From contig DATAYM010000017.1 in the NCBI GenBank assembly GCA_036272595.1, positions 49,128 through 113,127 of the forward strand: a DNA stretch of 64,000 nucleotides, written 5' to 3'. Below the pieces are notes generated by a model. The model did not search any database, was not told the DNA's origin, and saw only the letters and a list, made by a program, of their open reading frames with translations. Each line of letters starts with the position of its first letter. Position 1 is the first letter of the stretch. Positions 32,064 through 48,098 of this stretch are shown here, in pieces. The DNA is from Caulobacteraceae bacterium (GTDB taxonomy: Bacteria > Pseudomonadota > Alphaproteobacteria > Caulobacterales > Caulobacteraceae). A program made the translations under genes and the position numbers.

Positions 32064-33131
<1,068 letters not shown>

Positions 33132-33213
33132 TGAAGGCGTCCTTATCCCACGATTCTTCGAGCCCATGTCCCGAACCCCCCGCTGAAACGGGAACGCCCC
33201 GAACACCGCGACT

Positions 33214-33254
33214 GTACATGCTTTGTTCCGAGGCGCAATGTTCTTTTTTCGTTC
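33214..33254 (-). promoter_or_regulatory. Two alphaproteobacterial LexA (SOS) boxes upstream of recA
   Basis: gtac-atgcttt-gttc (33214-33228) and gttc-ttttttc-gttc (33240-33254), i.e. GAAC-N7-GTAC and GAAC-N7-GAAC on the minus strand. Confidence 0.8.
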
Positions 33255-33451
33255 CCCCCGACGTTCGAATGCGCCCGGCGGTAGACGTGCTCATAGAGAT
33301 TGGCGGTGACCGCTAGGGTTTGGCGGGATTTCACGGGATTTCGTGACACAAGGTGGGATTCGCAGCGGCTGCTCAGAGCCTTCTGAGAACCTTCAAAGAC
33401 CCCTTTCAAAAAATTGACCCGAGCGCCGCCCGTATGATTTGCTCGGGGCTA

Positions 33452-34069
33452 TCAGGTGGGTGGGGGGTCTTCCCAGTCAGCATGGGCGGCCCGGGCCGAG
33501 GGGCGCAGCCCGGCTTCTGACATACGGTCGAGGTTATCGCGCGCGACCCGCTCCTGATGGTCCTGGTGTGCCTTGAAGGCCGCCGCGTCGATCACAGCCT
33601 TCTGCAGGCGGGCGATATCGTAATCGCGCCAAACCACGTAACCGGTCCGGGTCACAACCAGCGTGCCGAGGAAGCCGATTGCACCGGATAGAACTCTCAG
33701 GACCGGCTCTGGCCATCCGACCGAGTGCCGGAGCGAATCCGGGATCGAGCGGCCGAAGATCGCGTCGTTTCCGACGACGACAAGCCCTATGATCAACAGG
33801 AGGAAAGCCGCAACAACGGCAAAAATGACCAGATACTCCTGGGTCAGGTCGACGATGGCCGCGGTAAGGCGTTCTCGCCGGTTGCGGTCGATCGATTCCC
33901 AGCTGAGCGATGGCATGGTGCGGTTCAGACGCACCAACAGGCCGGCCGCGATGATCGAGAGCGGCGACGTGATGACCTGAGCCGAGTTCAGGAGCCGCTC
34001 AAGCGAGACCTGCCACCCGAACAGACCGCCTACGGCCAGGCAAACCAGAAGAGTGGCCGCAGTTCCCAT
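33452..34069 (-). CDS. Multi-pass membrane protein, gene 2 of a coupled pair
   Basis: Several hydrophobic segments (LLVCLAVGGLFG; PLSIIAAGLLV; YLVIFAVVAAFLLLIIGLVVVG; VLSGAIGFLGTLVV); TAATG overlap with upstream gene. Confidence 0.75.
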   Translation of the reverse strand: MGTAATLLVCLAVGGLFGWQVSLERLLNSAQVITSPLSIIAAGLLVRLNRTMPSLSWESIDRNRRERLTAAIVDLTQEYLVIFAVVAAFLLLIIGLVVVGNDAIFGRSIPDSLRHSVGWPEPVLRVLSGAIGFLGTLVVTRTGYVVWRDYDIARLQKAVIDAAAFKAHQDHQERVARDNLDRMSEAGLRPSARAAHADWEDPPPT

Positions 34070-35094
34070 TAAGCATCAATCTTTCCATCCTGAACAAATC
34101 GAGAATACACGGTCCGCAGCTGGTCGGCCACATTGTCGAAATCCAGCAGCGTGCTGCCTTGGTGGGGCACCGAGAATGGCATCCGGGTGCGAAGGATTGC
34201 GTCGCCGTCCGAGAGACGCCCGTCCTTGCCCTCGATCTGCACCCTCGCGTCGCTCATGTCGGCGATGTCGTTGGCGAGTTCCTTGATCTGCCGCTTGCTC
34301 TCGGCGGTCCGCCTACCGCGTACGGCCAGGGATGCGTCGGCGGTGATGTACTCGCCGGGCCCGAGGGCTTTGATCAAAGACTCGGTCTTGGCGGAGCCTA
34401 GGATGGCCTCCCAGACCGGCTTGGCTTGTTCGGAGCGCAGGGCAGCGTCCTCGACGCGGCGCCTGGTCTGGACCTCGCGAGTTGGCCCGTCGGCGACGAC
34501 ACCAACAACGGCCGGGATGGTGCGTCCGGTGACCCGTAGTTTTTGAATGTCTCCGACATCGCCGACCGACCTGTCGAACTCGGCCTGCAGCCGGAAGGAC
34601 AGCATCGGATCGACAGTCTTGGTGCGCTCCTTAAGGAGCCAGTTGAGGTAGGCGTGGATCCGGTCTGAATCCATTGCCTGGGTCTTGAGGAAAAACAGGT
34701 GGTCACCGATCGCCATCCAGTACGCCAGGCCGCGGATGAATTGTGATCCGGTCGGTGCCTTACGTTCTTCCAGGTCGAACACCTCGGCGAGGGTGATGTT
34801 CGAAAGTTGCTGGGTCGAGGCCTTGAGGCGCAAGAGCGCCTGAAGGCCTTTCTCCTCCGAGTAGCAGAACTCGCCGTAGATTGCGGAGGTCAGGTCTGCG
34901 ACGCGGTTGAGCATCATCTCGCCGCCGAATTGGTCCTGGAGTTGGAAGACCCGATCTTCGACGCGCTGTGACAGCGAAGCGCCGGCGGTGTCCACCGTCT
35001 CAAGCGCCTGGCGGCAAAGGCCCTCAAGCGGCCACGCGACGGGGCCGTCGGCCTGGAACCGCCGATAATGCACCATGTGATATACGGTCGTCAT
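34069..35094 (-). CDS. Soluble hypothetical protein (341 aa), gene 1 of a coupled pair
   Basis: Long open frame, no TM segment, no recognisable catalytic motif. Confidence 0.8.
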   Translation of the reverse strand: MTTVYHMVHYRRFQADGPVAWPLEGLCRQALETVDTAGASLSQRVEDRVFQLQDQFGGEMMLNRVADLTSAIYGEFCYSEEKGLQALLRLKASTQQLSNITLAEVFDLEERKAPTGSQFIRGLAYWMAIGDHLFFLKTQAMDSDRIHAYLNWLLKERTKTVDPMLSFRLQAEFDRSVGDVGDIQKLRVTGRTIPAVVGVVADGPTREVQTRRRVEDAALRSEQAKPVWEAILGSAKTESLIKALGPGEYITADASLAVRGRRTAESKRQIKELANDIADMSDARVQIEGKDGRLSDGDAILRTRMPFSVPHQGSTLLDFDNVADQLRTVYSRFVQDGKIDA

Positions 35095-35177
35095 CGCCCA
35101 CCCCGAGTCGCTACGCGAGTATCCCGCATTTCCTACATATACTACAGGCTGTAGCCTGCCCGGCCGAAAGGGTCGAC

Positions 35178-35594
35178 ATGAAGCTCAGCGACTTCATCGA
35201 AGAGACACTCTACGAGATCGCGGTGGGCGTGAAGGCTGCCCGCCTCCGGGCAAGAGACCTGGTGGCCATCACGCCCTCAAGGCTGAACGGGACAGGCATC
35301 GACGAGAAGAGCTACGTCGACTTTGATGTGTCGATCGTGGTCTCAGAGGCGGACGCCTCCAAGCGAGGAGCGGGCGGCCGCCTCGGCGGCGATATCCAGG
35401 TGGCCGCCATCGCTAAGGTTAGCCTTGGCGCCGGCGGGAGCGCCGAGACGAGCAGCGACTCAAGGTCCGAGCAGACGCACAGGGTCAGCTTCAAGGTGCC
35501 GGTCTATCTTCACGCCAACTACTTCGGGAACCCGGCGACGGCCCAGGAAGCCGAGGAGTTTCTGAACTCGCGCGCGGCTTCAGGTGGACCATAG
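35178..35594 (+). CDS. Hypothetical protein, Trypco-like
   Basis: MKLSDFIEETLYEIAVGVK...VDFDVSIV...G-rich...HRVSFKVPV. Confidence 0.65.
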   Translation: MKLSDFIEETLYEIAVGVKAARLRARDLVAITPSRLNGTGIDEKSYVDFDVSIVVSEADASKRGAGGRLGGDIQVAAIAKVSLGAGGSAETSSDSRSEQTHRVSFKVPVYLHANYFGNPATAQEAEEFLNSRAASGGP

Positions 35595-35788
35595 CGGCGT
35601 TCTTCGCCTTCTGGGCGCTCGGCGCGCTGGTGTTCGGCGTCTTCCATGTTCGCTGGCTGCGCCGCCATGCCGCTAAGGGCGAGAAGGTTCCGGAGCCGGT
35701 CTTTCAATTCGTGTTCGGTGTGATCCTAGCCCCGATCGCGCTGGCGATCGGGGCGGCTCTCGCCTGGACGTTGCTGCGTGCGCTCTAG
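35591..35788 (+). CDS. Small two-TM protein, no canonical start found
   Basis: IAAFFAFWALGALVFGVFHVRWLRRH...VFGVILAPIALAIGAALAWTLLRAL*; overlaps the upstream stop. Confidence 0.4.
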   Translation: MAAFFAFWALGALVFGVFHVRWLRRHAAKGEKVPEPVFQFVFGVILAPIALAIGAALAWTLLRAL

Positions 35789-35793
35789 GTCGG

Positions 35794-36306
35794 TCAGTTC
35801 AGCGGGCGGGTAAACGACCGCATCCTTCCGTTCACGCATCGCGTGGTGATCATGAACCGCCTGAGGTACACCCGCCCGTCGCGCCCGACGACGTAGCGAT
35901 CGACCTCACCGCCGGCGCCACCATCGCAGGTAGCCTGCACCGGCTCTCCCGATCTGCCGGTCAGAGGCTCCACGTCGCCCCTCATGACATAGAAGTAGCG
36001 GCCGAAGCCCGAGTAGCCGTTGGCCCAGTCCCGACCATAGATCATTGCCACCGTCTTGGTGGGCGCGCCGGGGACCGAGAAGAAATCCTGCCGGTTCATA
36101 GCTTCGAACGATGACGAACTCGAAAGCGTGAAACAGCCGATCGGCTTGCCAGCGCCCGAGTCCGCCGACTTCGCTGCGTAGAGGTGCTCCTCGGTGTCGC
36201 AGGCCAGGACCCCAGGACCGTTTGGATGATAGAGCGGGTCGGAGAGCGCCCTTCCGGCAACTGCGCAAGCCAAGACGACCAGTGCGGCGAAGCCACCCTG
36301 TCTCAT
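35794..36306 (-). CDS. Secreted hypothetical protein
   Basis: Signal peptide MRQGGFAALVVLACAVAGRALS; four Cys in the mature region. Confidence 0.65.
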   Translation of the reverse strand: MRQGGFAALVVLACAVAGRALSDPLYHPNGPGVLACDTEEHLYAAKSADSGAGKPIGCFTLSSSSSFEAMNRQDFFSVPGAPTKTVAMIYGRDWANGYSGFGRYFYVMRGDVEPLTGRSGEPVQATCDGGAGGEVDRYVVGRDGRVYLRRFMITTRCVNGRMRSFTRPLN

Positions 36307-36370
36307 CGGCTCCCCGAGCCAGCGACCCAACATCTGCGTCAAGCACGCTTTGCGCGTCATACCCTTGCGA

Positions 36371-36829
36371 TCAATTCGAATTCGTCCGGCACTGGTAGTG
36401 ATCGATCTCGTCCAGCGTTGCGCCCTCGACCATGACTTGCGAGCTGCCTTGCGCTCCCGCTGGAAGGTTGGTCGAGTTGGTCATCGCATTGGCGAGCAGC
36501 GTATTGGCCTTCGAATAGAAGGCGCAGTCGGCCTCCACATACCCCAGCTCTTGGCCGCTGTTGTTTTGAAAGACGGCGGGAAAAATGACATAGTCGGAAG
36601 ACAATCGTGGACGTCCAAGCGTGACGGTCAGCGCCTGGGCCGCAGGCGCCGCCGGCACCAACGCGGACGCCACACTCGCGCCACCAGCTGGCGGGGCGAC
36701 CACCCCGCTCGCGGTCCCCTGGCTTTCATGGAGCGCGTACCCGATGACGAGGCCCGCGACCCCACCGACGACGAGACCTGTCGCGAAATTGCCGCGGCGC
36801 TTTGCCGGTGGCGTCGCTAATTCCGTCAT
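36371..36829 (-). CDS. Membrane-anchored protein with FxLYD-like domain
   Basis: N-terminal TM; VFQNNSGQELGYVEADCAFYSKANTLL...NLPAG. Confidence 0.7.
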   Translation of the reverse strand: MTELATPPAKRRGNFATGLVVGGVAGLVIGYALHESQGTASGVVAPPAGGASVASALVPAAPAAQALTVTLGRPRLSSDYVIFPAVFQNNSGQELGYVEADCAFYSKANTLLANAMTNSTNLPAGAQGSSQVMVEGATLDEIDHYQCRTNSN

Positions 36830-36903
36830 CGCCGCTCCCCAGTAGGTTGTTGGAGTCTAGGTCGCGGAACATCGCTGCGCAACCTGCGATGCCGCTGGAG
36901 GGC

Positions 36904-36933
36904 GAGCGGCGCGGGCTCCAACCCGCGCCGCTC
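36904..36933. other. Perfect 12-bp hairpin with loop complementary to a nearby site
   Basis: gagcggcgcggg-ctccaa-cccgcgccgctc; ttggag at 36850-36855. Confidence 0.7.
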
Positions 36934-37017
36934 TAGTCGCCACGCCCAGCCCCCCCCGCAGGGGCTGTCGCGCCCTCGGCAGCCGGAGAGATTACCGCCG
37001 AGAGGGCGTGACGATGT

Positions 37018-38823
37018 TCAACCCGGGAGCGCTCCCCGGTTCCAGCGAAAGTCCACGGCGGCGGCCTTTTCGACGCGGCTCACCGACGTTCCTTGCTCGG
37101 CCTTGACCACGATCGTCCCTAGGAGTTGGGACGAGGAAGGCTGTGAGGCAGGGGCCGGTGCGACCGCCGGCGACGCGGCCCTGACTAAGAGCGTCGGCAA
37201 GTGGCCGGCGGCTCGATCATGGGTTTGGCCTGGTGCGGCCATCGCGTTGCTGATCGCGATATGAAGCTTCGAAAGCGACGGCAAGCCCGGCAGCGACCGG
37301 CGGTCCGGTGTCGGCTTCCAATCTGCCGGCGACCGGTGGCCGGCCGGCGAACCAGGGCTTGGCGACGGGCGGCCACCCGGCACACTACGGCCTGGCTGCT
37401 GCTGGCCGCCAGGCGCGGGGGCCCTCGCCAGACCATCAATCAGTCGGGTGATCGCGCCAAGCGCTGGGAACTGGATAGAGAGCGCCGCGCCGCCGGCGTT
37501 TAGCAGCGTTTGAAGCCACTTCGGCATTTTCGACTCTAGGTCGGTGAAGGCCTTCTCGATCTTCCGACAACCGTCCTCCAAGCCTTTGACGATTTCGTCC
37601 CAGTGATTGTGTAACTCGACCAAGGCGAAGATGAACAAGCCGATCACGACAATGGCGGCCTCGATCGCCAAAGCGATGAGGCCAATCGGGTTCGCGTCCA
37701 TCGCGATATCGAGCAAAGTCATGGCGTCGGTGAGGCCGAAGACCGCCGGTATGAGGCTGGCGACCAGCACGGCCGCGCGGACCGATGCGATGCCGATGCT
37801 AACGATGCTTCCGGTCGCCGAAACCAAAGCCACGGCGGCTTGCGTCGCCAAGACCGCAGACAAGCCGATGAACGCCCCTTTCACCACATTGGTGTTGTCC
37901 GAGAGCTTGAGCAGCTTATCAGCGAGATCAACCGCCTTGACGATGATCTTCTCGATCTTCGGAAGCATAGCCACGAACTGGTCTGCGAGCTTGGTCACCG
38001 CGTCGGTGAAATGCTTCACGTCGTCGTCGTTGAGGCTCTCTATCCACTTCGTGACCTTATCGATCGCGTCTGTAAGCTTGGGGATCAGGGCAATGCCAAT
38101 CCGATTGCCGAGGCCAAGGACCGCCAGGCCCATGTTTTGTTTGGCTTCGATAAATTTCTTGGAGGCCTCGGCGTCCTCCTTGGTCATGACAGCATGAGCC
38201 CGTTGGAGCTGGTCCATCAGGGCGGCGATCTCTTCGCGCGGCGCTCTCAGCAGCGGCGCCATGTCGACCCAGGACCGGCTGAATAGTCCCTGGGCGGCGA
38301 CCGCCAGCGCGCTTCGGTTTTTGATCCGCTCCATGCCGTCGAGAATGCGCGTGAACATCGCGCCAGGGTCGTTTGAGAGGGCCTTGATCTCCTTCATGCT
38401 GACGCCGGCCAGCCGCAGCGCTTCGATCTCCTGCTTATTGCCCTTCAGCGCGTTGCCGACGTGCAGCTCCATCATCGCGAAGGCATGGTTCAACCCATCC
38501 GCGTCGACGCCGAGCTGTTTCGCGGCCCAGCCCAAGCGCTGCATGGCCTCGACGCTGACACCGGTCTTCTCTGAGCTGCGCAGCAGGGATTCGCCCATCT
38601 CCGCGACGCGGTTGGTGACGTCCCAAATCGCGCGGCCAGCCTCGGCCGCAGCGCCGGCGATGGCGGCGCCGCCGATCAGCTCGGTAAGGCCGAGCTTGGT
38701 GAACGCCGCGTGAAGCTTCGAGGTGCGCTGTTCGAGCGCCTGCAGGCCGGCGCCGATGCGCCGCAAGGGCGCGGTTGCGCGGTCCAACGCCTCGACAACC
38801 AGGTTAAGCCTAAGATCCTTCAT
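37018..38823 (-). CDS. Phage tail tape measure protein-like
   Basis: MKDLRLNLVVEALDRATAPLR; SEKTGVSVEAMQRLGWAAKQLG; ANPIGLIALAI; follows the tail chaperone. Confidence 0.85.
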   Translation of the reverse strand: MKDLRLNLVVEALDRATAPLRRIGAGLQALEQRTSKLHAAFTKLGLTELIGGAAIAGAAAEAGRAIWDVTNRVAEMGESLLRSSEKTGVSVEAMQRLGWAAKQLGVDADGLNHAFAMMELHVGNALKGNKQEIEALRLAGVSMKEIKALSNDPGAMFTRILDGMERIKNRSALAVAAQGLFSRSWVDMAPLLRAPREEIAALMDQLQRAHAVMTKEDAEASKKFIEAKQNMGLAVLGLGNRIGIALIPKLTDAIDKVTKWIESLNDDDVKHFTDAVTKLADQFVAMLPKIEKIIVKAVDLADKLLKLSDNTNVVKGAFIGLSAVLATQAAVALVSATGSIVSIGIASVRAAVLVASLIPAVFGLTDAMTLLDIAMDANPIGLIALAIEAAIVVIGLFIFALVELHNHWDEIVKGLEDGCRKIEKAFTDLESKMPKWLQTLLNAGGAALSIQFPALGAITRLIDGLARAPAPGGQQQPGRSVPGGRPSPSPGSPAGHRSPADWKPTPDRRSLPGLPSLSKLHIAISNAMAAPGQTHDRAAGHLPTLLVRAASPAVAPAPASQPSSSQLLGTIVVKAEQGTSVSRVEKAAAVDFRWNRGALPG

Positions 38824-38959
38824 AGAGCCGCTCAGCCTGTGTTCGCCACATCAGGAGTTCGTCGACGTCCATTTCCCAAAGCTCGGAGGTCGGGAAATGA
38901 AAGACGACGGCCACGTCGCCTAAAACGTCTCGCCAGTTTCCTGGCGCCCAGGAAAAAAA
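38810..38959 (-). CDS. GpE'/gpT-like -1 frameshift extension of the tail assembly chaperone
   Basis: WRDVLGDVAVVFHFPTSELWEMDVDELLMWRTQA in the -1 frame after a T7 slippery run. Confidence 0.8.
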   Translation of the reverse strand, partial: FFSWAPGNWRDVLGDVAVVFHFPTSELWEMDVDELLMWRTQAERLYEGS

Positions 38960-39213
38960 CCGCCGACGATCTCGCCCAAGCCCTCGATATCTTCCAGATC
39001 CAGCTCATCGACCGCACTGCCTGAAAGGCCTGTCAAAGCTCCGATCAGGGAAAGGCTTTTGGCGATGGAGCCGTCCGTTCGGTCGAGCATCCGCAGGTCC
39101 TTGGACTTCAGCCGGCGAATGGGAACCTCGGTTATTTCTTCCTGGCGTTCCTCGCCGCCCTGCACCCTGGTGCGCAGGACGATCGGATGCTTCAGCTGAT
39201 AGGTGTCGCTCAC
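38920..39213 (-). CDS. Tail assembly chaperone (Mu gp41 / P2 gpE-like)
   Basis: QLKHPI...RRLKSKDL...LIGALTGLS...VDELDLEDI...GGFF. Confidence 0.85.
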   Translation of the reverse strand: MSDTYQLKHPIVLRTRVQGGEERQEEITEVPIRRLKSKDLRMLDRTDGSIAKSLSLIGALTGLSGSAVDELDLEDIEGLGEIVGGFFPGRQETGETF

Positions 39214-39404
39214 GGGCGCTGTCCCTTTCGTTGCTTGGTTGCAAGGAAATCGGCTTCCGACACTCCAAGCGCCCTGCACGCCGCCTGTTCATCCACTGTC
39301 AGTTTGGTGGCCGGTGCTGGGGCCGCTGCCTTGAGGAAGGCGGCTTCGGAAACGCCGATCGCCGCACAGGCAGCGCGCTGTTCGTCCGTCAGGCCCGTCG
39401 TCAT
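39210..39404 (-). CDS. Small protein with two tandem Mu scaffold C-terminal-like motifs
   Basis: LTDEQRAACAAIGVSEAAFL and LTVDEQAACRALGVSEADFL. Confidence 0.65.
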   Translation of the reverse strand: MTTGLTDEQRAACAAIGVSEAAFLKAAAPAPATKLTVDEQAACRALGVSEADFLATKQRKGQRP

Positions 39405-39802
39405 GCGGCCGGCCCCGATTGGGGTGACAGGCCGGTGGGTTCGATAGTCAGCGTGACCTCCGCGTTGCTCACCCTGAAAACGAAACACGGATGAAGTCCT
39501 CGACGGTGCCAGGCATTCATGGGGTTTGCGGCAGCTTCGGACCAGCGGACGGTTGCGTAGGGTGCGCCAACCCCAAACTCTATGTGCGAGAGCACGCCAA
39601 GGACGGGCTCAGCGCCAATCGAGATCGGAGCCGACCGGAGATAGTCTCTGATCGCCGTGATAACCGGGCCAGCGTCGGCAAGTTGCTGGCCATCGCTGTC
39701 GATCGCAGAGATTGGACTTAGGCGGACCGAAACCGAACGGGCCGAGAGCAGGCGTTGGGATGCCGCGAATGTCGCCTGCCATCTCTTTTCACCATTGTTC
39801 AT
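39401..39802 (-). CDS. Hypothetical protein, possible remote Mu prohead protease remnant
   Basis: DAGPVITA...PI...GVLSHIE...YATVRWSEAAA...RGLHPCF loosely follows the Mu_Pro order; catalytic motifs not evident. Confidence 0.4.
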   Translation of the reverse strand: MNNGEKRWQATFAASQRLLSARSVSVRLSPISAIDSDGQQLADAGPVITAIRDYLRSAPISIGAEPVLGVLSHIEFGVGAPYATVRWSEAAANPMNAWHRRGLHPCFVFRVSNAEVTLTIEPTGLSPQSGPAA

Positions 39803-39972
39803 TTGGCACTCTCGTTCTCTGTCGCCAGAATTTTTCGGACCACTCTCACCGGCACCCCGCTGTCCCGGGCGATCGTGTCGACCGACCGCCCTCCTAGGGA
39901 TGTTCGCCTGACCTTGGTCGCCGCGGCTTTGAAGGCCTTCCGACGGCACAGCCGGAGATTTTTCGGTTTCAT
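39799..39972 (-). CDS. Small basic HTH-like protein (57 aa, below ORF-track cutoff)
   Basis: MKPKNLRL...GRSVDTIARDSGVPVRVVRKIL; ATGA overlap with the downstream ORF. Confidence 0.55.
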   Translation of the reverse strand: MKPKNLRLCRRKAFKAAATKVRRTSLGGRSVDTIARDSGVPVRVVRKILATENESAK

Positions 39973-40005
39973 GTGCTGATTGCCGGGTTACGGGATGACG
40001 GCTGG

Positions 40006-40389
40006 TCATTTGATAAGGCCCTCGCGGCGCAGCTTGGCGCGCTTCATGCGGACCCAGCGGGAAGAGCATCCGAAGACTTTAGCGATGTCGCCGGCCGAGC
40101 GATCGGTCAAACAGGCTTCTCTGATGAGGGCAGCCCGGCCGGCCGGCCCCGAGGAAACATCAAACTGTCCCGAGCCGAACTCGGAGGCGACAATCTCCGC
40201 ATTCTCCTGGCCGACGAGCTTCGAAAAGATGTTGTGCGGTTCCGGGCTCGACGGGACGTAGACCTGTCGGCCGCCGAAGGCCTCCTGGATCTTAAGCGCC
40301 ACGAGGCCGCCTAAGCGCAGCGACACAAAGCCGACCAGATCAGTCGGCGCGTCGGCGTCTGTGGTGATCTCTTTCGCCCCTCGCGTCAT
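40006..40389 (-). CDS. Mor/C family transcription activator
   Basis: ALKIQEAFGGRQVYVP; SAGDIAKVFGCSSRWVR. Confidence 0.8.
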   Translation of the reverse strand: MTRGAKEITTDADAPTDLVGFVSLRLGGLVALKIQEAFGGRQVYVPSSPEPHNIFSKLVGQENAEIVASEFGSGQFDVSSGPAGRAALIREACLTDRSAGDIAKVFGCSSRWVRMKRAKLRREGLIK

Positions 40390-40605
40390 GGCGCCACAAA
40401 GCGGGAATTAGTTCCGGCGGAACCACCCTGAATAAATTCAGGGTCGGCCTATGTGCCGTTGCCGTTCAACGCCCGCGCCCCCGGTAGATGATCGCCTTCC
40501 AATCCAGTCGATCGTCCTCTGTCGCTCGGGCTAGCGCGTGAGAAGCCTTGAGAGGCGTGAGAAGCCCGTTGACGATCCGCGACGAGGAAGTAGGTCATCT
40601 TGGCC

Positions 40606-40965
40606 CTAAGAGGCCGCCACGGTCGCGCGCTGGCGCAGCCTTAGGGCCAGACGACCAACGGCAGATTTGCTGGGGAAGCGACCTGAGCCGAACGCCTCGG
40701 CTCCCAGCCGCGCGATCTCCGCCATCGAGACCAGGCCGTCCCGGTCAGTGATGAAAGCCATAACAGCGGGTTCGCGTTCGAAGGGTGACCGCCGGCCGGC
40801 TTCGCGCGGCGGCAAGAGCTGGTGGTGGACCGCCGCCACCAAGTCGACCGACCACGCGCGCCCAGGGCCGAACTCAGCGGCGATCTCGACGGCCATCGCC
40901 GAGAAGGTGCGCTCGCGGCTCGCGGCGACGAAGGCGCGGATGTCGGGATCGGTCGGATCAGGCAT
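40606..40965 (-). CDS. Phage hypothetical protein, HTH-like
   Basis: DPDIRAFV...SMAEIARLGAEAFGSGRFPSKSAVGR; overlaps the gp16-like stop. Confidence 0.6.
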   Translation of the reverse strand: MPDPTDPDIRAFVAASRERTFSAMAVEIAAEFGPGRAWSVDLVAAVHHQLLPPREAGRRSPFEREPAVMAFITDRDGLVSMAEIARLGAEAFGSGRFPSKSAVGRLALRLRQRATVAAS

Positions 40966-41371
40966 CCGCGTGCGCCTTTCGCTCGACCATCGCCTTGAGG
41001 GCGGTGATCACCGGACCGGCCTTACTCGCGTTCAGAAATCGGAGCGCCGAGACCTTCGCCTGCCGTTCCAGAAATGCATTAAGGCTGGCCTCGGTTGGTG
41101 CGTCCGCGTAGGCGGTCCAGAGCTTGCGGATCGCGGCCACTTGGCCAGGCGATGCCATGCCGTCGCGCTCGCCGAACGATCGGCGGCGCGACGAGCTGGT
41201 GAAGCCCAGCCCTCGGAACCTGTCCATGACGGCATCGAAGCCGCGACCGTCCAAGTGGCTCGCGCTATGGGTGCCCCCGAAGTTTTCGAGGATCGCCCGA
41301 TAGTCGTCATCGCCAAGGCCCAGCTGGGCCTTGGCGACTCTCAGCAGGGCCAGCTTAGACTTGTGCAGCAT
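40958..41371 (-). CDS. Mu gp16/GemA-like protein (DUF1018)
   Basis: KLALLRVAKAQLGLGDDDYRAIL; ASPGQVAAIRKLW; VITALKAM. Confidence 0.85.
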   Translation of the reverse strand: MLHKSKLALLRVAKAQLGLGDDDYRAILENFGGTHSASHLDGRGFDAVMDRFRGLGFTSSSRRRSFGERDGMASPGQVAAIRKLWTAYADAPTEASLNAFLERQAKVSALRFLNASKAGPVITALKAMVERKAHADA

Positions 41372-41663
41372 GCTGATCCGCGTGGAGGTCTTCTTGAATC
41401 TTCGTGACCCTCGCTATCGTCTCGCGCTGGAGCGCCGCGGCGCCAGCCAGCAGCGCGTAAATCGTCTCATCATAGCTCAAAGAAACACGGGCAAATTCCG
41501 GCGTCAGCGCGTAGTCCGCGGCCAGGTCCATGATCCTTCCAACATGCTCAAACGCCACATTCGCGATCCAGAGGTCGGCGGCGAGACGCCCGGCCGGTAC
41601 CCGTGGATCGCCGCTCGCCGGCGGACGATCGGCATTAGATTCGATCACTTGCGGGTTGGTCAT
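41355..41663 (-). CDS. Phage hypothetical protein
   Basis: Open frame in the operon between MuB and gp16-like. Confidence 0.55.
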   Translation of the reverse strand: MTNPQVIESNADRPPASGDPRVPAGRLAADLWIANVAFEHVGRIMDLAADYALTPEFARVSLSYDETIYALLAGAAALQRETIARVTKIQEDLHADQHAAQV

Positions 41664-41672
41664 GGGTGCCTT

Positions 41673-42500
41673 TCAGGCTGCTAAGAAGAGAAAATCACGC
41701 ACAAGTTCGGCGGTGACGGGTTGCCGATCAGCTTCGATATTCAGTTCGCTTAGAAGGTCGGCCGCGCGGCGGAAGCTGCGGTCGGCGCGGCCGGTTCCGA
41801 AGTGGTGGATAACAAGTTGAAGTGCATTGGGATCAACCAAGCCGCCGGCTTCGAAGAAGAGCTTCAGGTCATCATCCCTCACGTCTGCATACGTGAGGGT
41901 CTCGACATAGAGCGCACGGTCGGCGACCGCCGCCGATAGGACACTTTGTCCGCGCCGATCGCTCTTCAAGATGAACTCGTTGTTGCCGACGAAAATCAGG
42001 CCGATGGGAAAAGGTGAATAGCCGCCCGTCGCATCGTTCAAGAACCGCAAGACCTCGATCGCTTCAGGCGACAGGTTTTGCGCTTCATCAAATATGATCG
42101 TGTAGTGCGGGCTCCATTGCTCGGCCGATTCACGTTGTTGCTTGCGGCTGCCGTCAAAGCCCGCCCATTCACAGATCACGCCAAACATTCGGCCCCGGAG
42201 CATGACGTAATTGGTCGGGGTGGTGTCGCGATGGGCGGATGGGCAAACCTCGTAAATGGCCTCAAGCGCGAGCTGGAGCGCCGCGGTGGACTTCAGCCCG
42301 CCCTTGGGTCCAGGCGGAACAGACACCACCGCCACCTTGCATTCTTCCGCGGCCTGGAACCGTCCTATCGCCGTGCTTTTGCCGATGCCGGGAGGTCCGG
42401 AAAAGACCGCTATGCGCCGTCGATCGTGAGATTTTTGCATGTGTGCGAGAAGGGTGCTGACGACCGAGGTCGCCACGTATCCGCTGTCGTCAGCCGACAT
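41673..42500 (-). CDS. MuB-like AAA+ transposition ATPase
   Basis: Walker A GPPGIGKS; Walker B IIFDEAQNL; LIFVGN; overlaps the transposase end. Confidence 0.88.
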   Translation of the reverse strand: MSADDSGYVATSVVSTLLAHMQKSHDRRRIAVFSGPPGIGKSTAIGRFQAAEECKVAVVSVPPGPKGGLKSTAALQLALEAIYEVCPSAHRDTTPTNYVMLRGRMFGVICEWAGFDGSRKQQRESAEQWSPHYTIIFDEAQNLSPEAIEVLRFLNDATGGYSPFPIGLIFVGNNEFILKSDRRGQSVLSAAVADRALYVETLTYADVRDDDLKLFFEAGGLVDPNALQLVIHHFGTGRADRSFRRAADLLSELNIEADRQPVTAELVRDFLFLAA

Positions 42501-44457
42501 TGCGTTGCTCTCCCATGAGGCGGGCGGTGCGGCGGTCGCGCAGGGCTCTCGCGCGCTCTTCCGGCGTCTGAGCGGGCGTCGGCTCGCTGGCGCTGCCGAT
42601 GGCCAAGACCAGCGCTGTCGCAGCCCCGCCGGTGTCCAGACGGTCGACCCGCCCGGCGACTGTCGTCACAGGCAGCCGAGCGACCATTCGGCGCTTGATG
42701 GCTATAGGGTCAGCCGGCGGCGCTTCTTGTTCGAGTAGAGCCACATGACGCCGCTGGCCGGCCTGTCGGCGCGCGGATTCGAGTGCGCCTTCTTCCCACA
42801 GGGCGGGCATGGCGTAGTCTCGTTCGAGATACGCCCAACTGCCGTCCCGCTGCTGAAACAGCGGCTCGCCCCCGCGACGCCAGGGCAGCGCCAGCGCTAC
42901 GGTCGTCCCGGCCGGCAGCGCAGACAGCGCCGGGTGGTGAAATCCTATGCCGTCGATCGAGACACGGCCGTCCCTGGCCTTGCGGGTGTCGTGTTTGCAG
43001 AAGGCCGCGTCCAGCGCGAGCGGGTCAACACGAATTGGCCGCCAGCCGGCTTGGACTTTTTCGCGGAGCCATTCGTCTGGCGAGCGGCCGCCCCATTGGC
43101 CGCCGACCGGCCTGGCGTTGAAGTCCTCGACCATCATCGCGTGGTCGGTGCAGAACTCATCCCAAGAGCCCGGATAGGGCTTCGGCGGCCTTCCAACGGT
43201 CTGGGTCTTCTTGTGCATCCGCTCGCCGCCGGCGTAGCCTGGGAGCTGGGCATAGACATAGCGGTCCATCATCGCGAAGCGGCCCTCGATCGGCTTGGCC
43301 GAGGCGTTGTAGGGCCGCGCATAAATGACGGTGCGAACGCCGGCCGGGTTCACCAGCTGCAGGGCGCCTCGGAGCTTCTCCTCCAGGCCGGCGAACTCAG
43401 AACCGTTGTCGAGATAGAGCGCGCGCGGAAAGCCCCATAGCGGCTGCTGCGTCATGGCGATAAACGCCTCGATGACATGCTCCTGCCGGATGCCTTCACC
43501 CTCGGCGCACATGACGAGATGGCAAAAGATTCGGCCCGTTCCAGCGTCCACAAAGCCGATGTTTTTGCCCCACGTGGCGGAGCCGTCCGGGCGGGTCACG
43601 ATCACGTCGATCGGCTTCACGTCCGCGATGACGATCTCCATCGGCGCATAGCAGGTCCAGTCTCGACGGATGCGCGGCTTGGCGTCGTCGAAGGCCTTGG
43701 CGTTATTCTTTTTGAGGTTGACGACGCGGTATTCGGAGAATCGCTCAACGTGGCGGCGGGACAGTCGATAGGCCGCTGGCGCCAGCTCGACGCCGCGGGC
43801 CTCGCACAACTCCAACAGCCGGAATTCGAGCAGGCGGCGGACTTCGTTGACGCCTGACGCTTCGGCTGTCGATGCCCACAGCCCTTTGGCCTCGACCACG
43901 ACCAAGCCGCCAATTTGAGCAAGTAAGTCTTCGGGTTGTCCGGCCGCGCGGAACGCTCGGTCAAAGACACGGGAGACCACGACGCGAGGCTTGCCGGCGT
44001 CTTGGGGCAGCTTTCGCGCTAGCCCCGCCATTCCATGCTTCTCGTAGAGGTCAATCCAGCGCTGAAGGGTGCGCTCGCTATGCTTGCCCTTGGCGGCCTC
44101 GACGCGGATCTCCGCCGCCCGCCCCGCTGTCCCCCGCTCATGGCCGATGGCCGCCTCGATCGCCTTGAACCTGGCCGCCACGCGTTCGCTCTGATTCTTG
44201 AAGACCGCCAGCCGCTGCGCCGTCGGCGCCAGGACGGACAGGGCGGTGCTCATGGGCCGTTCAAGGGCCGCTGAGAGGCTTCTGAGAGACACCTGATAGC
44301 ATCGGCCCGAACGACCACCACGGCCCTTCACGGTGCGAACCTCAAGGGCGATGCCCCGCCATGATTCGGCGGCGACGGCCGCGGTTGCCGATCGACGGCC
44401 AATGCCGGCCATCGCGGCGACCTCGCCGACGCTCAGCCAATCGCCCCCAGCCGCCAT
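42490..44457 (-). CDS. MuA-like DDE transposase
   Basis: N-terminal HTH (WLSVGEVAAMAG...GRGGRSGRCY); IADVKPID, LYLDNGSEF, KPIEGRF triad. Confidence 0.9.
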   Translation of the reverse strand: MAAGGDWLSVGEVAAMAGIGRRSATAAVAAESWRGIALEVRTVKGRGGRSGRCYQVSLRSLSAALERPMSTALSVLAPTAQRLAVFKNQSERVAARFKAIEAAIGHERGTAGRAAEIRVEAAKGKHSERTLQRWIDLYEKHGMAGLARKLPQDAGKPRVVVSRVFDRAFRAAGQPEDLLAQIGGLVVVEAKGLWASTAEASGVNEVRRLLEFRLLELCEARGVELAPAAYRLSRRHVERFSEYRVVNLKKNNAKAFDDAKPRIRRDWTCYAPMEIVIADVKPIDVIVTRPDGSATWGKNIGFVDAGTGRIFCHLVMCAEGEGIRQEHVIEAFIAMTQQPLWGFPRALYLDNGSEFAGLEEKLRGALQLVNPAGVRTVIYARPYNASAKPIEGRFAMMDRYVYAQLPGYAGGERMHKKTQTVGRPPKPYPGSWDEFCTDHAMMVEDFNARPVGGQWGGRSPDEWLREKVQAGWRPIRVDPLALDAAFCKHDTRKARDGRVSIDGIGFHHPALSALPAGTTVALALPWRRGGEPLFQQRDGSWAYLERDYAMPALWEEGALESARRQAGQRRHVALLEQEAPPADPIAIKRRMVARLPVTTVAGRVDRLDTGGAATALVLAIGSASEPTPAQTPEERARALRDRRTARLMGEQRNVG

Positions 44458-44670
44458 CTATGCAGCCGCCGCGCTCTCTCGCAGGATGATCCTGCGCAGT
44501 TCTTTGGCCGCCGGGCCATTCTTCAACCCAGCCAAGGCGCGGTGAGCATATGAAGGGGTCACGCTGTTGCGAAGGCACCAGGCGCGGAGCGAATCGCCTT
44601 GTTCGGTGAAGCCGGCGCGCACCCTGCGCACCAAGGCTTCGCTTCCGTTCAACTCGATTGTGTGCTGCAT
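44458..44670 (-). CDS. Ner/Cro-like DNA-binding protein
   Basis: VRAGFTEQGDSLRAWCLRNSVTPSYAHRALAG; divergent from the repressor. Confidence 0.75.
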   Translation of the reverse strand: MQHTIELNGSEALVRRVRAGFTEQGDSLRAWCLRNSVTPSYAHRALAGLKNGPAAKELRRIILRESAAAA

Positions 44671-44686
44671 TGCCGGCCCCGCGAGT

Positions 44687-44730
44687 TTGTCCACAGGTGG
44701 ACGGTATTGACCGCTTGTCCACACGTCAAC
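44687..44730. promoter_or_regulatory. Putative immunity operators
   Basis: ttgtccaca at 44687 and 44715; gtccac-ag-gtggac dyad between divergent ner and repressor. Confidence 0.55.
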
Positions 44731-44743
44731 ACGGCTGCCGTCA

Positions 44744-45253
44744 ATGCTTGAGGATCAGGTTCGCCGTATTCGAGAGGCGCTAGGCGCGGCCAACGACTCT
44801 GAGTTGGCGGAGAAGCTAGGGCTGGGTCGATCGGCGGTATCGAGGTGGAAGGAGCGCGGGGTAATTCCGGCGAAGTTTCGCTTCCTGGCTGAACGCGACG
44901 GCCGCCATGCTATTGAGCATGGCTCCCAGTTCATCGAACACGACCGCCTATACGGCCATGCCGATCATCACTATTGGCTGAGGGCCGCTCTGCAATTCAT
45001 TCCTCCGGGATATGGCGCGAAACTGGCGGCGCCAGACCGCGCGCGACTGCTTGAGTTCGTGCTCACCCGGCTTATGGGAGCCGCCGCCGACGCCACTGTC
45101 CGAGAACTCGGAAAGCGCCGCTGCGAGAGCGAGGAAGACCTTCAGGCGTTGCTAGAGGTTCTCGGTTCCGGCACCAGCTCGGAGACGGGCTCGATGTACG
45201 CGGACCGCATAGCAAGGGTCCTCGCTGAAGGCCTCCCAGCAAACCCTACCTAG
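44744..45253 (+). CDS. Phage CI-type HTH repressor
   Basis: RIREALGAANDSELAEKLGLGRSAVSRWKERGVIP. Confidence 0.8.
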   Translation: MLEDQVRRIREALGAANDSELAEKLGLGRSAVSRWKERGVIPAKFRFLAERDGRHAIEHGSQFIEHDRLYGHADHHYWLRAALQFIPPGYGAKLAAPDRARLLEFVLTRLMGAAADATVRELGKRRCESEEDLQALLEVLGSGTSSETGSMYADRIARVLAEGLPANPT

Positions 45254-46182
45254 GGGATCGCTGGAAGTGCTGTGACCTCGCCGATCCGCGCATGCCAAGC
45301 CTTGTCGCCCGCCTCGATCCCCATCATGTCGCCCTGCCTGGTCAGCCGAAATCGGCCAGTCCCAGTGCTTGCGGGCGAAAGGGCGGCCAGTGTGTTCGCT
45401 GTTTCGACCGAGAGAAAGGCCGCGGCTGTATCGACGTGCTCCATGGCCAGCCGCATCGTCTCTAGCGCCGCGCCGTGGCCTGCCAGCTTCTCCGCGCAGA
45501 TGACTGGGGCAAGCGCCGCGGTCCAGGCGCGCAGGTCGGGGTGGCCGGCATCGGCGATCATGTCGGTCAAGATCACCCGCGCCTCCTGCAGCCGCTCTCT
45601 GTCTCGCCAGGTTGACCGAAGGAAGGCCGCACCCCTGATGAACCCGATATCCCGCAGCGTGCGATCGACGTCGATTTGCACCGGGCCGCCCCCGCGCGTC
45701 TTGTCGAAGATGCCCTTCCGGATCGCGGCCATCTTGGCCATGCGGTTCTGCAGTTCATCGACGCGATCGACGCGCGAGCTGACCCGGTCGATCCAGTCAA
45801 TCCGCGCTTGAAGCCGGCCTAGCGCCTGGGCTAGCTCGGCGGCGTTCTGGCGCTCGCGCTCTTCCTGCAGGAAGAGGTTCTCGGCAATGTTTGACGCGGT
45901 CTGCCAGCCAGCCTGGTCCGGAGCATTGCGGCCCAAGGCAAGCCACCGCGATCCGGATGGGAGGCACACTGGACAAGGCGCCATGTCCTTAAGAGGACGA
46001 AGGCGACTATCGATCTCAACCGGGCTGGCGAGCACGACCAGTTCGCCCTCGGCCGGCGGCCGCTCCGTGCTGATGGTCGGGAACGTCTCCGGCTGTCCGG
46101 TGGACTTTACGTGTTCCAGGAAGCGCCTGCCGAGGGCGATGCCTGGATTGCTCGGATAGACGGGATTCGTTTCGAGGTTCAA
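45250..46182 (-). CDS. Hypothetical protein (310 aa) with CPVC motif and coiled coil
   Basis: Long open frame convergent on the repressor. Confidence 0.6.
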   Translation of the reverse strand: MNLETNPVYPSNPGIALGRRFLEHVKSTGQPETFPTISTERPPAEGELVVLASPVEIDSRLRPLKDMAPCPVCLPSGSRWLALGRNAPDQAGWQTASNIAENLFLQEERERQNAAELAQALGRLQARIDWIDRVSSRVDRVDELQNRMAKMAAIRKGIFDKTRGGGPVQIDVDRTLRDIGFIRGAAFLRSTWRDRERLQEARVILTDMIADAGHPDLRAWTAALAPVICAEKLAGHGAALETMRLAMEHVDTAAAFLSVETANTLAALSPASTGTGRFRLTRQGDMMGIEAGDKAWHARIGEVTALPAIP

Positions 46183-46505
46183 GCGCCGCTCCGAGCCTCA
46201 ACCGACAGAAGACTCCGTGGATCATGTATCCATCAGGCGAGCGGCACAAGAATGGGAGGGCGCGATCCGCTGGCCAGCACTTGGCCTGCGCAAAGCGGCC
46301 CGACTCCCCAATAGACTCCTCAATCTGCTGAGATCATTCTCACCACAGCTGATTTCATTGCGTTTTTCGCGGGCCTCTATTGAGGAGTCCCGGACCTCCT
46401 CAATAAGCTCCCGAAACCGGGCGCAAACCCAATCCGTATCAGCGAATTCCATCGCCAAAATCTAACGGCCGCTTCCGTCAATCTCAAAAAGCGCGCCCAG
46501 CGGAT

Positions 46506-48098
46506 CTAGGTTGATTTCCGTTCCGGCGAGTCCAGAACCCGCCGCACGTGGGCCGCGAGCTGGTCGTAGGTGAACGGCTTGGACAGCAGGTCGACGCCGG
46601 CATCGAGGCGGCCCTGGTGCACGATGGCGTTGCGCGAATAGCCGGTGGTGTAGAGCACCCTCAAGCCGGGCCGGATTTGCGCGGCCTCCTCCGCGAGCAG
46701 CCGACCGCTACGCCCCGGCAACACCACGTCGGTGAACAGCAGGTCGATCCGCTCGTCGCTGCGCAAGATGGGCAGGGCCCCTTCGGCGTCAGCGGCTTCG
46801 AGCACTCGGTAACCGAGTTCGGTCAGGCTCATTGCGCTGTAGGCGCGGACTCCCTCATTGTCTTCGACGAGGAGCACCACCTCGCCCTCGGCCGCGCCCA
46901 CCGACCGATGCTCGCCGGCGTCCTCATCCTGCGAGGCCGGGCCACGGTAGCGGGGGAGATAGAGCTTCACGCAGGTCCCCTCGCCGGGCTCGCTGTAAAT
47001 CGTCACATGGCCGCCGGATTGCTTGACGAAGCCGTAGACCATGCTGAGGCCGAGGCCCGTGCCTCTTCCCTCTCCCTTGGTGGTGAAGAACGGCTCGAAC
47101 ACGCGCGCGAGCACATCCTTCGGGATGCCGCCGCCGGTGTCGGTCACCGACAGCAGCACGTACTGACCGGGGATCACCTCGGTGTCGGTTTCCTGATAGG
47201 TCTCGTCGAGATAGGTGTTGGCCGTCTCGACCGTCAGCTTGCCGCCGCCCGGCATGGCGTCGCGGGCGTTCACGGCCAGATTGAGCACCGCGGACTCCAG
47301 CTGGTTCTGATCCACCTCCACCGGCCACAGACGCGGATAAAGCACGCCCTCCAGCTCGATCTGTTCGCCCAATGCATGGTGCAGCAGTTCGGTCATGCGC
47401 CGGACCAGCAGGTTGAGGTCCGTCGCCACGGGCTGAAGCGGCTGGCGGCGTGAGAAGGCGAGGAGCCGCGAGGTCAGATTCACCGCCCGCTCCGCAGCCA
47501 GCCTGGCCATGCTCAAAGCCTTCTCCGCCCGCGGGTTCGGCTCGATGCTGCGCTGGGTGGTGTCCAGGCCGCCGATGATGACCGTCAGCAGATTGTTGAA
47601 GTCATGCGCGATGCCGCCTGTCAGCTGGCCGACCGCTTCCATTTTCTGAGCCTGGAACAGCGCGTGCCGCGCCTGCTCGAGATCCTGTTGCGCCTCGTGC
47701 TGTTCGGTCCGGTCGCGGGTGATCTTGGCGAAGCCGATGATGGCGCCGTCGTCCTGGCGAATCGGCTCGATGGTGACGTGCGCCCAGAACCGGGTGCCGT
47801 CCTTGCGCACGCGCCAGCCCTCGGTCCTCCAACGTCCCTGGAGGCGTGCGGTGTCGAGCCCGTACTGCGGCAGCCCGGCTTGCCGATCATCTTCGGTGTA
47901 GAAGCGGGAAAAATGCTGGCCGATGATCTCGTCGGCCGTGTAGCCCTTCAGACGCCGAGCTCCCAGGTTCCAGCTGGTCACCACGCCTTTGGGATCGAGC
48001 ATGTAGATGGCGTAATCGCTGATCGCCTCGACCAGCCGCCGATACTGGCTCGCCTCGGTGTACCCCGCACCGCCAAGATCGTCCTTGTTCGCCACCAC
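46506..48098 (-). CDS. PAS hybrid sensor histidine kinase / response regulator
   Basis: PAS ([14 protein letters not shown]); [12 protein letters not shown]; VFEPFFTTK; receiver [10 protein letters not shown]. Confidence 0.93.

Follow-up and report, generated by a model that had tools for sequence, protein, structure and literature searches.

A compact Mu-derived transposable element upstream of recA in a Caulobacteraceae bacterium and its possible spread as a phage satellite

We analysed a 64,000-nucleotide stretch of a Caulobacteraceae genome (contig DATAYM010000017.1 of assembly GCA_036272595.1, positions 49,128 to 113,127; the whole stretch is called the window below) and found that its positions 33282-46499, upstream of recA, hold an intact Mu-derived transposable element from a recurrent lineage whose members are compact (8.6-13.2 kb). 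The element is 13,218 bp long, and both of its termini could be mapped by comparison with relatives; the original prediction, made from the sequence alone, had placed its limits at 33288-46493, within 6 bp of these termini. The observations establish a mobile, selected, site-targeting compact Mu-type element. Our reading of its biology is that it would spread between cells as the satellite of a phage whose head is of the Mu type, and we regard this reading as an even call. That the element belongs to a distinct compact Mu-type class, one half of what had been predicted, is well supported by its recurrence, its ends and the selection acting on its genes; the other half, a new class of transposing satellites, stays a matter of interpretation, with no helper found and some members of the lineage carrying only defence or other cargo.

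Ends, relatives and selection

The stretch occupied by the element has a GC content of 0.62-0.65, compared with ~0.69 in its surroundings, and is bounded by a perfect 4-bp target-site duplication (Table 1). A 5-bp duplication was rejected, as comparison of both flanks gives a match of just 4 bp, a size that the original prediction had missed. Duplications of 4 bp are present in five of the six elements for which both ends were mapped, namely GCGG in the window, GTGA in L010, GCGC in L005, ACGG in L063 and CCGT in L088 (related loci are designated by L numbers); none is present at the mapped ends of L009. The terminal repeats are imperfect, and each end has two GATTG(G/T)CG-like repeats resembling transposase sites, with the terminus 16 nt outside the first of them, a spacing from the first GATTG repeat that holds in all the aligned right ends. 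The right end of the window element could be aligned with those of L005, L009, L010, L024, L063, L067 and L088, and its left end with those of L003, L009, L010, L018 and L063. Left ends begin with 5'-TGGG, and right ends begin with 5'-TAGA in seven of the eight compared.

Two further features of the terminal regions were observed. A palindrome, TTGAGGAG-N8-CTCCTCAA, lies at 46380-46405, ~97 nt inside the left terminus; L063, L005 and L018 have a similar palindrome equally far from the terminus, L010 has one 66 nt from it, and L003, L009, L075, L079 and L088 have none. The palindrome may serve as an operator, as a pac site or as a site for a host factor. A tandem CTTCTGAGA-like motif occurs as a direct repeat at 33367-33399, near the right end, and at 44266-44298, within the 5' part of the transposase gene, with 19 of 22 bases identical, and similar CTCAGAG motifs are located near the right ends of L005, L062 and L063.

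At least 272 transposase homologues, mostly ~50% identical, were recovered, mainly from metagenomes and from genomes of Caulobacter and Phenylobacterium. We inspected about 45 related loci from Caulobacterales, Sphingomonadales and Asaia, most of them metagenomic and with gene calls that are partly our own choices of open reading frames (ORFs). Wherever ends or flanks are visible the relatives are compact, 8.6-13.2 kb, and the same compact gene order, for which the original prediction had suggested a search, recurs at independent insertions in many genomes, with protein identity down to 31-54%; the architecture is therefore not unique to this strain. The element is rare, being present in 1 of 301 high-quality genomes of the order, and no close relative carrying the transposase was found at the genus, family or order level, either among 40 relatives or among the 301 genomes of the order. 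A scan of genome contigs with single proteins gave no relatives; profile-based scans did recover them.

In the relatives, partial virion gene sets or cargo are placed directly after mor and before the right end. The window element shares with L009, L062, L063 and L067 a set consisting of a 133-aa protein (p133), a scaffold-motif peptide, a tail assembly chaperone (TAC) and a tail tape measure protein (TMP). Other sets comprise gpT and TMP (L005), gpT, TAC and TMP (L024, L088, L089 and L093), gpI, gpT, TAC and TMP (L065), gpI and gpT (L030 and L100), or portal, gpF, TAC and TMP (L032, L033, L087 and L096). The slot in L010 (L010:15715-20820) is filled, in place of virion genes, by a single 1,701-aa ORF with no Pfam or PADLOC match. 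Defence or other cargo, with no virion gene in the available sequence, which may stop short of the right ends, is carried by L003 (SIR2 together with an OLD/UvrD pair), L004, L007 (an adjacent type I restriction-modification system), L013 and L018.

A maximum-likelihood tree of 48 transposases, with annotation covering part of the 48 loci, contains only sequences from loci in which no terminase was seen, most of them visibly compact, and no terminase is present at any annotated related locus. The transposase had no tblastn match in 50,697 phage genome records, and no full-length phage relative of it was found in these records or at any retrieved locus. At the same time, the gpT of the family shares 49% identity with its counterpart in Mu-like phages of 36-40 kb (RC1/RS1), their major head protein. 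From these two observations, the virion genes derive from ordinary Mu-like phages, and the mobility module belongs to a lineage seen only in small elements. Exchange of parts appears to take place among the compact elements as well. In L062 (G006:C177:350-11960), from the same genus, the element also lies next to recA and shares the repressor, Ner, Mor, TAC and TMP at 45-64% identity (repressor 64%, TAC 54%, TMP 57%), yet its transposase and ATPase are only ~26% identical to those of the window, a pattern that indicates swapping of modules between compact elements at the same site.

The closest relative, L063, resides in a related species (recA 95% and alanyl-tRNA synthetase 88.5% identical). 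Between this element and that of the window, identity is 87-93% for the early genes (MuA 91%) and just 31-68% for the late genes, and the right-end cargo differs, from which we conclude that both elements are mosaics. Ratios of nonsynonymous to synonymous substitution (dN/dS) between the two, estimated by the Nei-Gojobori method for nine element genes, were 0.11 for MuA, 0.09 for MuB, 0.12 for the repressor, 0.16 for Ner, 0.12 for GemA, 0.28 for the 119-aa early protein p119, 0.22 for TAC, 0.19 for TMP and 0.18 for the 152-aa protein p152, with recA at 0.06 as the host gene. No frameshift or stop was seen in any compared gene. All nine element genes are under purifying selection, including TMP and TAC, for which the original prediction had singled out this comparison; neutral evolution of the late genes, which would have suited a relic, is not what we observe.

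The repressor, Ner-like, MuA, MuB, gp16-like and Mor-like genes read from the sequence at the outset were all borne out by family matches; all named genes are open, and all except the repressor gene are on the minus strand. The repressor, in which no peptidase domain was detected, is 90% identical to that of L063. Ner-like orthologues are 43-93% identical, the highest value being that of L063, where a 70-aa gene was called, and the start of the window protein is likely M19 of the longer ORF. In the transposase, D279, D350 and E391, the intact DDE residues, are invariant among 30 homologues. Its profile matched, among solved structures in the PDB, only the N-terminal DNA-binding region of TnsB (E 1e-11), MuA not being matched, and the most apt name for it is a MuA/TnsB-superfamily enzyme within a gene order of the Mu type. 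Pfam and PHROG searches of the element ORFs gave no integrase family, the DDE transposase and the target duplication standing in its place, and TnsA and TniQ/TnsD likewise had no match there. GemA is 31% identical to GemA of phages of the BcepMu group. For p119, an AlphaFold2 model with a mean predicted local distance difference test (pLDDT) score of 82 contains two predicted helix-turn-helix units, and its fold matches to the bipartite DNA-binding domains of transposases were below significance; the protein is a candidate accessory DNA-binding protein. A fold search for a recognisable terminase or TniQ in p119 gave nothing significant. Scans of the element for promoters and terminators returned sites no more numerous than in shuffled sequence.

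Insertion upstream of recA

Eleven related elements, that of the window included, are located 24-51 bp upstream of the recA SOS box or of an equivalent promoter motif, a point absent from the original prediction. Four of them have the right end towards recA (window, L005, L062 and L063) and seven the left end (L003, L009, L010, L013, L014, L018 and L079). The distance from the terminus to a strict GTTC-N7-GTTC box is 27 nt in the window, 25 in L009, 29 in L062, 35 in L018 and 41 in L063; in the remaining six the terminus is 24-51 nt from the equivalent promoter motif. The recA-adjacent elements are distributed over at least four subclades of one clade of the transposase tree (support 100/99). 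Even the window element and L063 must have been inserted independently, judging from their different duplications, box distances and distal flanks.

Same-genus genomes free of the element retain the recA SOS box and diverge upstream of it. We note that the DNA just upstream of the box (33255-33281 in the window; L039-L049) cannot be aligned from one species to another, in a set with RecA identities of 92-97% to the window protein; elements that were inserted and lost here repeatedly would be consistent with this.

The genome carrying the window element contains a second MuA/MuB pair (L002, contig C57:17716-20446), 33% and 29% identical to the pair described here, at the edge of a 17-kb low-GC island (C57:4000-21000). 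Its right end, of the canonical TG..CA type, is at C57:20446, 66 bp from a near-identical SOS box, GAACAAAAAAAGAAC, situated just downstream of dut-coaBC. Since there are only 87 strict boxes in the 4.25-Mb genome, and ~0.3% of the genome is that near to one, the L002 right end together with the recA-adjacent elements makes SOS-operator DNA a reasonable hypothesis for the target of this clade. As a rule for the whole family it was rejected, as no box is near the ends of L024, L067 or L088. We found no published account of recA-targeted Mu-like elements. The lineage represents transposition of the Mu/TnsB type with a tight natural target and without a recognisable TniQ/TnsD, and raises the question of how the target is chosen.

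Metagenomic contigs allowed us to look at populations of two of the elements. A Logan contig from a lake metagenome consists exactly of GCGC, the L005 element and GCGC; this element (L005:8978-17630), from a Caulobacter metagenome-assembled genome, is the 8.6-kb gpT and TMP type. In two lake metagenome runs, X1 and X2, junction unitigs show the whole element inserted either way round at a single 4-bp site and at similar depth, with depths for the two orientations of 8.9 and 9.7 (left junction) and 11.9 and 11.8 (right junction) in X1, and of 15.9 and 13.7 (left) and 20.6 and 7.4 (right) in X2; no unitig of the empty site was found in either run. Either two precise independent insertions exist in coexisting strains, or the element flips or is re-inserted in place, and both readings fit because the GCGC duplication is palindromic. 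The window element, for its part, is a fixed, quiet, single copy in its source sample, where one 13.6-kb contig spans both junctions at flank depth.

The late operon and a possible satellite life

The only virion-related genes of the element are those of p133, the scaffold-motif peptide, TAC and TMP, arranged as a Mor-proximal mini late operon; the latter three had been named from the sequence and were upheld by PF10123, phrog_166 and, for TMP, by matches to 23 PHROG families, mostly tape-measure families. Pfam and PHROG searches of the element ORFs gave no terminase, portal, major capsid, sheath, tube, baseplate, fibre or lysis family, in line with the near absence of virion genes noted before. 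Two tandem LTxEQRAxCxAxGVSEAxFL motifs, a motif that the Mu gpI protease/scaffold protein has at its C-terminus, make up the peptide; L063 and L067 also have two copies and L009 three, and none of these four elements with a multi-copy motif has a capsid gene. The product of TAC in the 0 frame (38920-39213) is extended by a programmed -1 frameshift at a T7 run (38953-38959) to a stop at 38810-38812, and the T7 slippery run with its ~50-residue -1 extension in the overlapping frame is kept in six elements. TMP orthologues in compact elements are 47-69% identical. Upstream of the peptide gene, p133 gave an AlphaFold2 model of pLDDT 75 whose best PDB fold match was the T4 gp21 prohead protease (probability 0.97, template modelling (TM) score 0.40), with the human cytomegalovirus protease lower in the list. 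No Ser or His is invariant in its alignment, so that p133 probably has a prohead-protease fold without catalytic residues and may tentatively be regarded as what is left, in inactive form, of the gpI protease domain, bearing in mind that these structural assignments are based on shallow alignments.

The best reading of such an operon is an interaction with the assembly line of another phage. We can envisage the following scenario. Within the cell, the element would transpose with its own A and B proteins, and the SOS box, bound LexA or a DNA-binding protein that the element encodes itself would guide it to the recA promoter region. Between cells, it would travel as the satellite of a phage that has a head of the Mu type. 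Upon derepression, Mor would switch on the late operon; the scaffold-motif peptide and the protease-like protein might then act on the gpT-type capsid protein of the helper and redirect capsid size in the manner of SaPI CpmB, while the chaperone and the tape measure would join the assembly of the helper tail. The headful machinery of the helper could finally package the element, as it does laboratory mini-Mu. Parasitism is favoured by the wiring of the late genes to the element's own Mor, by a chaperone and tape-measure pair that looks fully functional, by near-identical transposition modules in different species, and by a size about one-third of a Mu-like genome and inside the published range of satellites. 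The element probably needs a helper phage to spread. In its full form, the proposal would be that these are the first satellites to use DDE transposition for both integration and replication, to home to LexA-operator DNA of the recA promoter and to reprogram a Mu-type helper through a bivalent scaffold-tail peptide and a private chaperone and tape-measure pair; we put this forward tentatively, and as a whole it is somewhat doubtful.

Comparison with known systems places the element between several of them. With Mu, BcepMu, phages of the D3112/B3 type, RC1 of Rhodobacter and RS1 of Rhodovulum it has in common the left-arm order of repressor/Ner, A, B, GemA and Mor, and with Mu-like phages in general the DDE transposase with an AAA+ partner, the repeated site-like end motifs and homologous TAC, TMP and gpI motif, to which gpT may be added for its relatives. 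Mu-like phages, however, are 36-40 kb with a full virion module, whereas the element lacks terminase, portal, capsid, tube, baseplate and lysis genes; they make a 5-bp duplication, end in 5'-TG...CA-3' and choose near-random targets, in contrast to the 4-bp duplication, the TG left and TA right termini and the single chromosomal spot described here. The satellites P4, PICI/SaPI, cfPICI, PLE and PICMI resemble the element in their size of ~10-14 kb, about one-third of a plausible helper, in having their own repressor, their own replication or mobility functions and few structural or assembly genes, and in carrying accessory or defence cargo at the edges. They differ in integrating by an integrase instead of by DDE transposition, and the element in turn has no primase/replicase and no recognised small terminase, and its helper and packaging are putative. 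To our knowledge, the combination of chaperone and tape measure is carried by no described satellite. SaPI CpmB is a small protein with a capsid-binding C-terminus common to the helper scaffold, a logic that the scaffold-motif peptide of the element seems to resemble. Mini-Mu, which has the Mu ends and A/B and no morphogenesis genes, replicates by transposition and is packaged by helper Mu with adjacent host DNA, and may serve as a working model for mobilisation of the element; mini-Mu is an engineered deletion, whereas the element belongs to an old and diversified natural lineage that has a late operon and a site preference of its own. In a survey of satellites, all known ones integrate by integrases and a transposase is never mentioned, and median sizes are 9.5-14 kb (PMC10085698). 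We found no published description of transposing satellites or of this compact element family. If the element does ride on a helper, it would represent a mechanistically different satellite class, with transposition instead of site-specific recombination, which finding tools keyed to integrases would miss. If, in addition, such satellites home to LexA operators, the 50:50 mixture of orientations in one lake would mean repeated, highly precise re-insertion or flipping in place. The scaffold-motif peptide and the private tape measure are in any case concrete candidate agents that may redirect or block virion assembly in a new way.

A number of observations weigh against this satellite reading. 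No helper was identified: a Mu-type portal (PF06074) is present in just 1 of 19 element-bearing genomes, and the lone Mu-type prophage concerned (in G049), on a contig that ends before the tail genes, is unrelated to the element. In the genome of the window element, which is 95% complete, tblastn and profiles built from relatives revealed no further copy of TAC or TMP, nor any gene for gpT, portal, gpI or gpF, so the co-resident full Mu-like prophage that the original prediction had looked to was not found, and the capsid, tube and tail-tip partners must come from an incoming phage, if at all. Neither a small terminase nor a known hijacking gene is recognised in the element, the right terminus ends in TA and not in the CA typical of Mu, and the fold match of p133 is weak. 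The source metagenome offers no variant junctions and no sign of activity. Finally, the virion gene sets vary from member to member, which is awkward for a single hijacking strategy, and members of the same clade carry only defence or metabolic cargo, with no virion gene in the available sequence, implying that the family can persist as a plain transposon.

The main rival, compatible with a satellite life, is a defence island that poisons virion assembly: a site-specific transposon, not packaged itself, would use phage-derived late genes (those of the scaffold-motif peptide, the dead protease, TAC and TMP, and gpT or portal in relatives) as decoys, whose products would join the assembling proteins of an invading Mu-type phage and prevent infectious particles from forming, and it would gain from the survival of its host. 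The bivalent scaffold motifs and the catalytically dead protease do resemble a dominant-negative inhibitor, sister elements of the same transposase clade have recognised defence cargo at equivalent positions (L003 and L007), and no helper is resident in the genome. The tape measure is, moreover, a known focus of conflict between Mu-like phages, with a precedent in Tab, which blocks tail assembly of Mu-like phages by recognising TMP (PMC10884400). However, with the late genes behind the element's own Mor they would be expressed only upon its own derepression and not constitutively, the conserved frameshift of the chaperone and the full-length TMP point to productive assembly, no PADLOC model matches any element gene, and the presence of 91%-identical transposases in two different species is left unexplained. 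We consider this explanation unlikely by itself.

A second rival regards the element as a Tn7-like 'safe-harbour' transposon, with TnsB-like and TnsC-like proteins, in which Mu regulatory genes and a few structural genes have been retained as phage relics for a role internal to the cell. Such a transposon would need no dedicated helper, its only routes of spread being transformation, conjugation and generalised transduction. Tn7-like and CRISPR-associated transposons also combine a DDE transposase with an AAA+ regulator, and the structural profile match to TnsB and not MuA noted above, the precise recurrent insertion at a fixed short distance from a conserved housekeeping promoter, the rarity of the element and the existence of family members without virion genes are all in keeping with this idea. 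Yet Tn7-like systems have TnsA and TniQ/TnsD, a 5-bp duplication and one orientation, whereas here neither protein is detected in Pfam or PHROG scans, the duplication is of 4 bp and both orientations occur, and, unlike Tn7-like transposons, the element has phage regulatory and virion genes. In particular, the TAC frameshift, TMP and scaffold motif are subject to strong purifying selection and are conserved (31-69% identity across elements), and we know of no function for them outside virion assembly. This second rival also appears improbable to us. The alternative of a cryptic prophage produced by deletion, in which a once full-length Mu-like prophage is decaying and has been stripped of its morphogenesis genes in this strain, finds some agreement in a gene content that is a subset of that of a Mu-like phage and in the quiescent single copy of the source sample, but is very unlikely in view of the intact ends with a perfect target duplication instead of deletion junctions, the recurrence of the same order in independent, divergent insertions, the purifying selection on undamaged genes and the lack of any full-length transposase relative among the phage genomes and retrieved loci.

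Feature list, cargo and accessory genes

Table 1. Features of the element and its immediate surroundings, in window coordinates
Feature	Position	Strand	Evidence and remarks
recA	32064-33134	-	PF00154, E 6.5e-144; host gene flanking the element
recA SOS box, GTTCTTTTTTCGTTC	33240-33254		Host landmark of the target site, outside the element; conserved in same-genus recA promoters
Target-site duplication copy 1, GCGG	33278-33281		Identical to copy 2
Right end	33282-33330		Outside inward: 5'-TAGACGTGCTCATAGA then GATTGGCGG; second repeat GGTTTGGCGG 20 bp further in
Cargo, 205-aa protein	33452-34069	-	ORF and translation; membrane-bound by eye; no Pfam, PHROG or PADLOC match; absent from L063
Cargo, 341-aa protein	34069-35094	-	phrog_3482, E 9.8e-51; no PADLOC match; absent from L063
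Cargo, 188-aa cysteine-rich protein	35794-36360	-	Hydrophobic N-terminus; no family match; absent from L063
p152, 152-aa protein directly after TMP	36371-36829	-	N-terminal hydrophobic helix; 81% identical to same-position L063 gene
TMP, 601 aa	37018-38823	-	phrog_2276, phrog_9570, phrog_8125, best E 1e-26
TAC	38810-39213	-	phrog_166; orthologues match PF10109
Scaffold-motif peptide, 64 aa	39210-39404	-	PF10123 positions 303-330 of 330 (last 28), E 1.5e-5
p133, 133-aa protein between Mor and scaffold peptide	39401-39802	-	Homologues in L009, L062, L063, L067
Mor-family late transcription activator	40006-40389	-	phrog_836, E 1e-11; orthologues in relatives
p119, conserved 119-aa early protein	40606-40965	-	Orthologues 34-70% identical in six elements
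GemA (Mu gp16 family)	40958-41371	-	PF06252, E 2.2e-24
Early protein, 102 aa	41355-41663	-	Orthologues 36-53% identical in L062, L063, L065
MuB-like AAA+ transposition ATPase	41673-42500	-	AAA_22, E 3.5e-10; phrog_296 'DNA transposition protein', E 7.6e-15
MuA/TnsB-superfamily DDE transposase, 655 aa	42490-44457	-	phrog_310, E 3.7e-38
Ner-like small helix-turn-helix protein	44458-44670	-	Weak PHROG matches phrog_15281, phrog_925
CI-type repressor	44744-45253	+	PF07022, E 1.8e-8; divergent from early operon
Left-arm accessory gene, 310 aa	45250-46182	-	phrog_33379, E 5.7e-9
Left end	46440-46499		Outside inward: 5'-TGGGCGCGCTTTTTGA then GATTGACGG; second repeat GATTTTGGCG further in
Target-site duplication copy 2, GCGG	46500-46503		Perfect 4-bp match to copy 1
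Hybrid histidine kinase	46506-48098		Flanking gene; stop codon 46506-46508

The cargo of the element, for which PADLOC and Pfam gave no defence annotation, is concentrated in the slot near the right end, where the stop of the 341-aa gene overlaps the start of the 205-aa gene; the two may form an undescribed two-gene accessory system. A putative gene of 138 aa (35178-35594, plus strand), without family match, lies on the opposite strand between the cargo genes. At the position of the left-arm accessory gene, L063 has an unrelated ORF of 266 aa.

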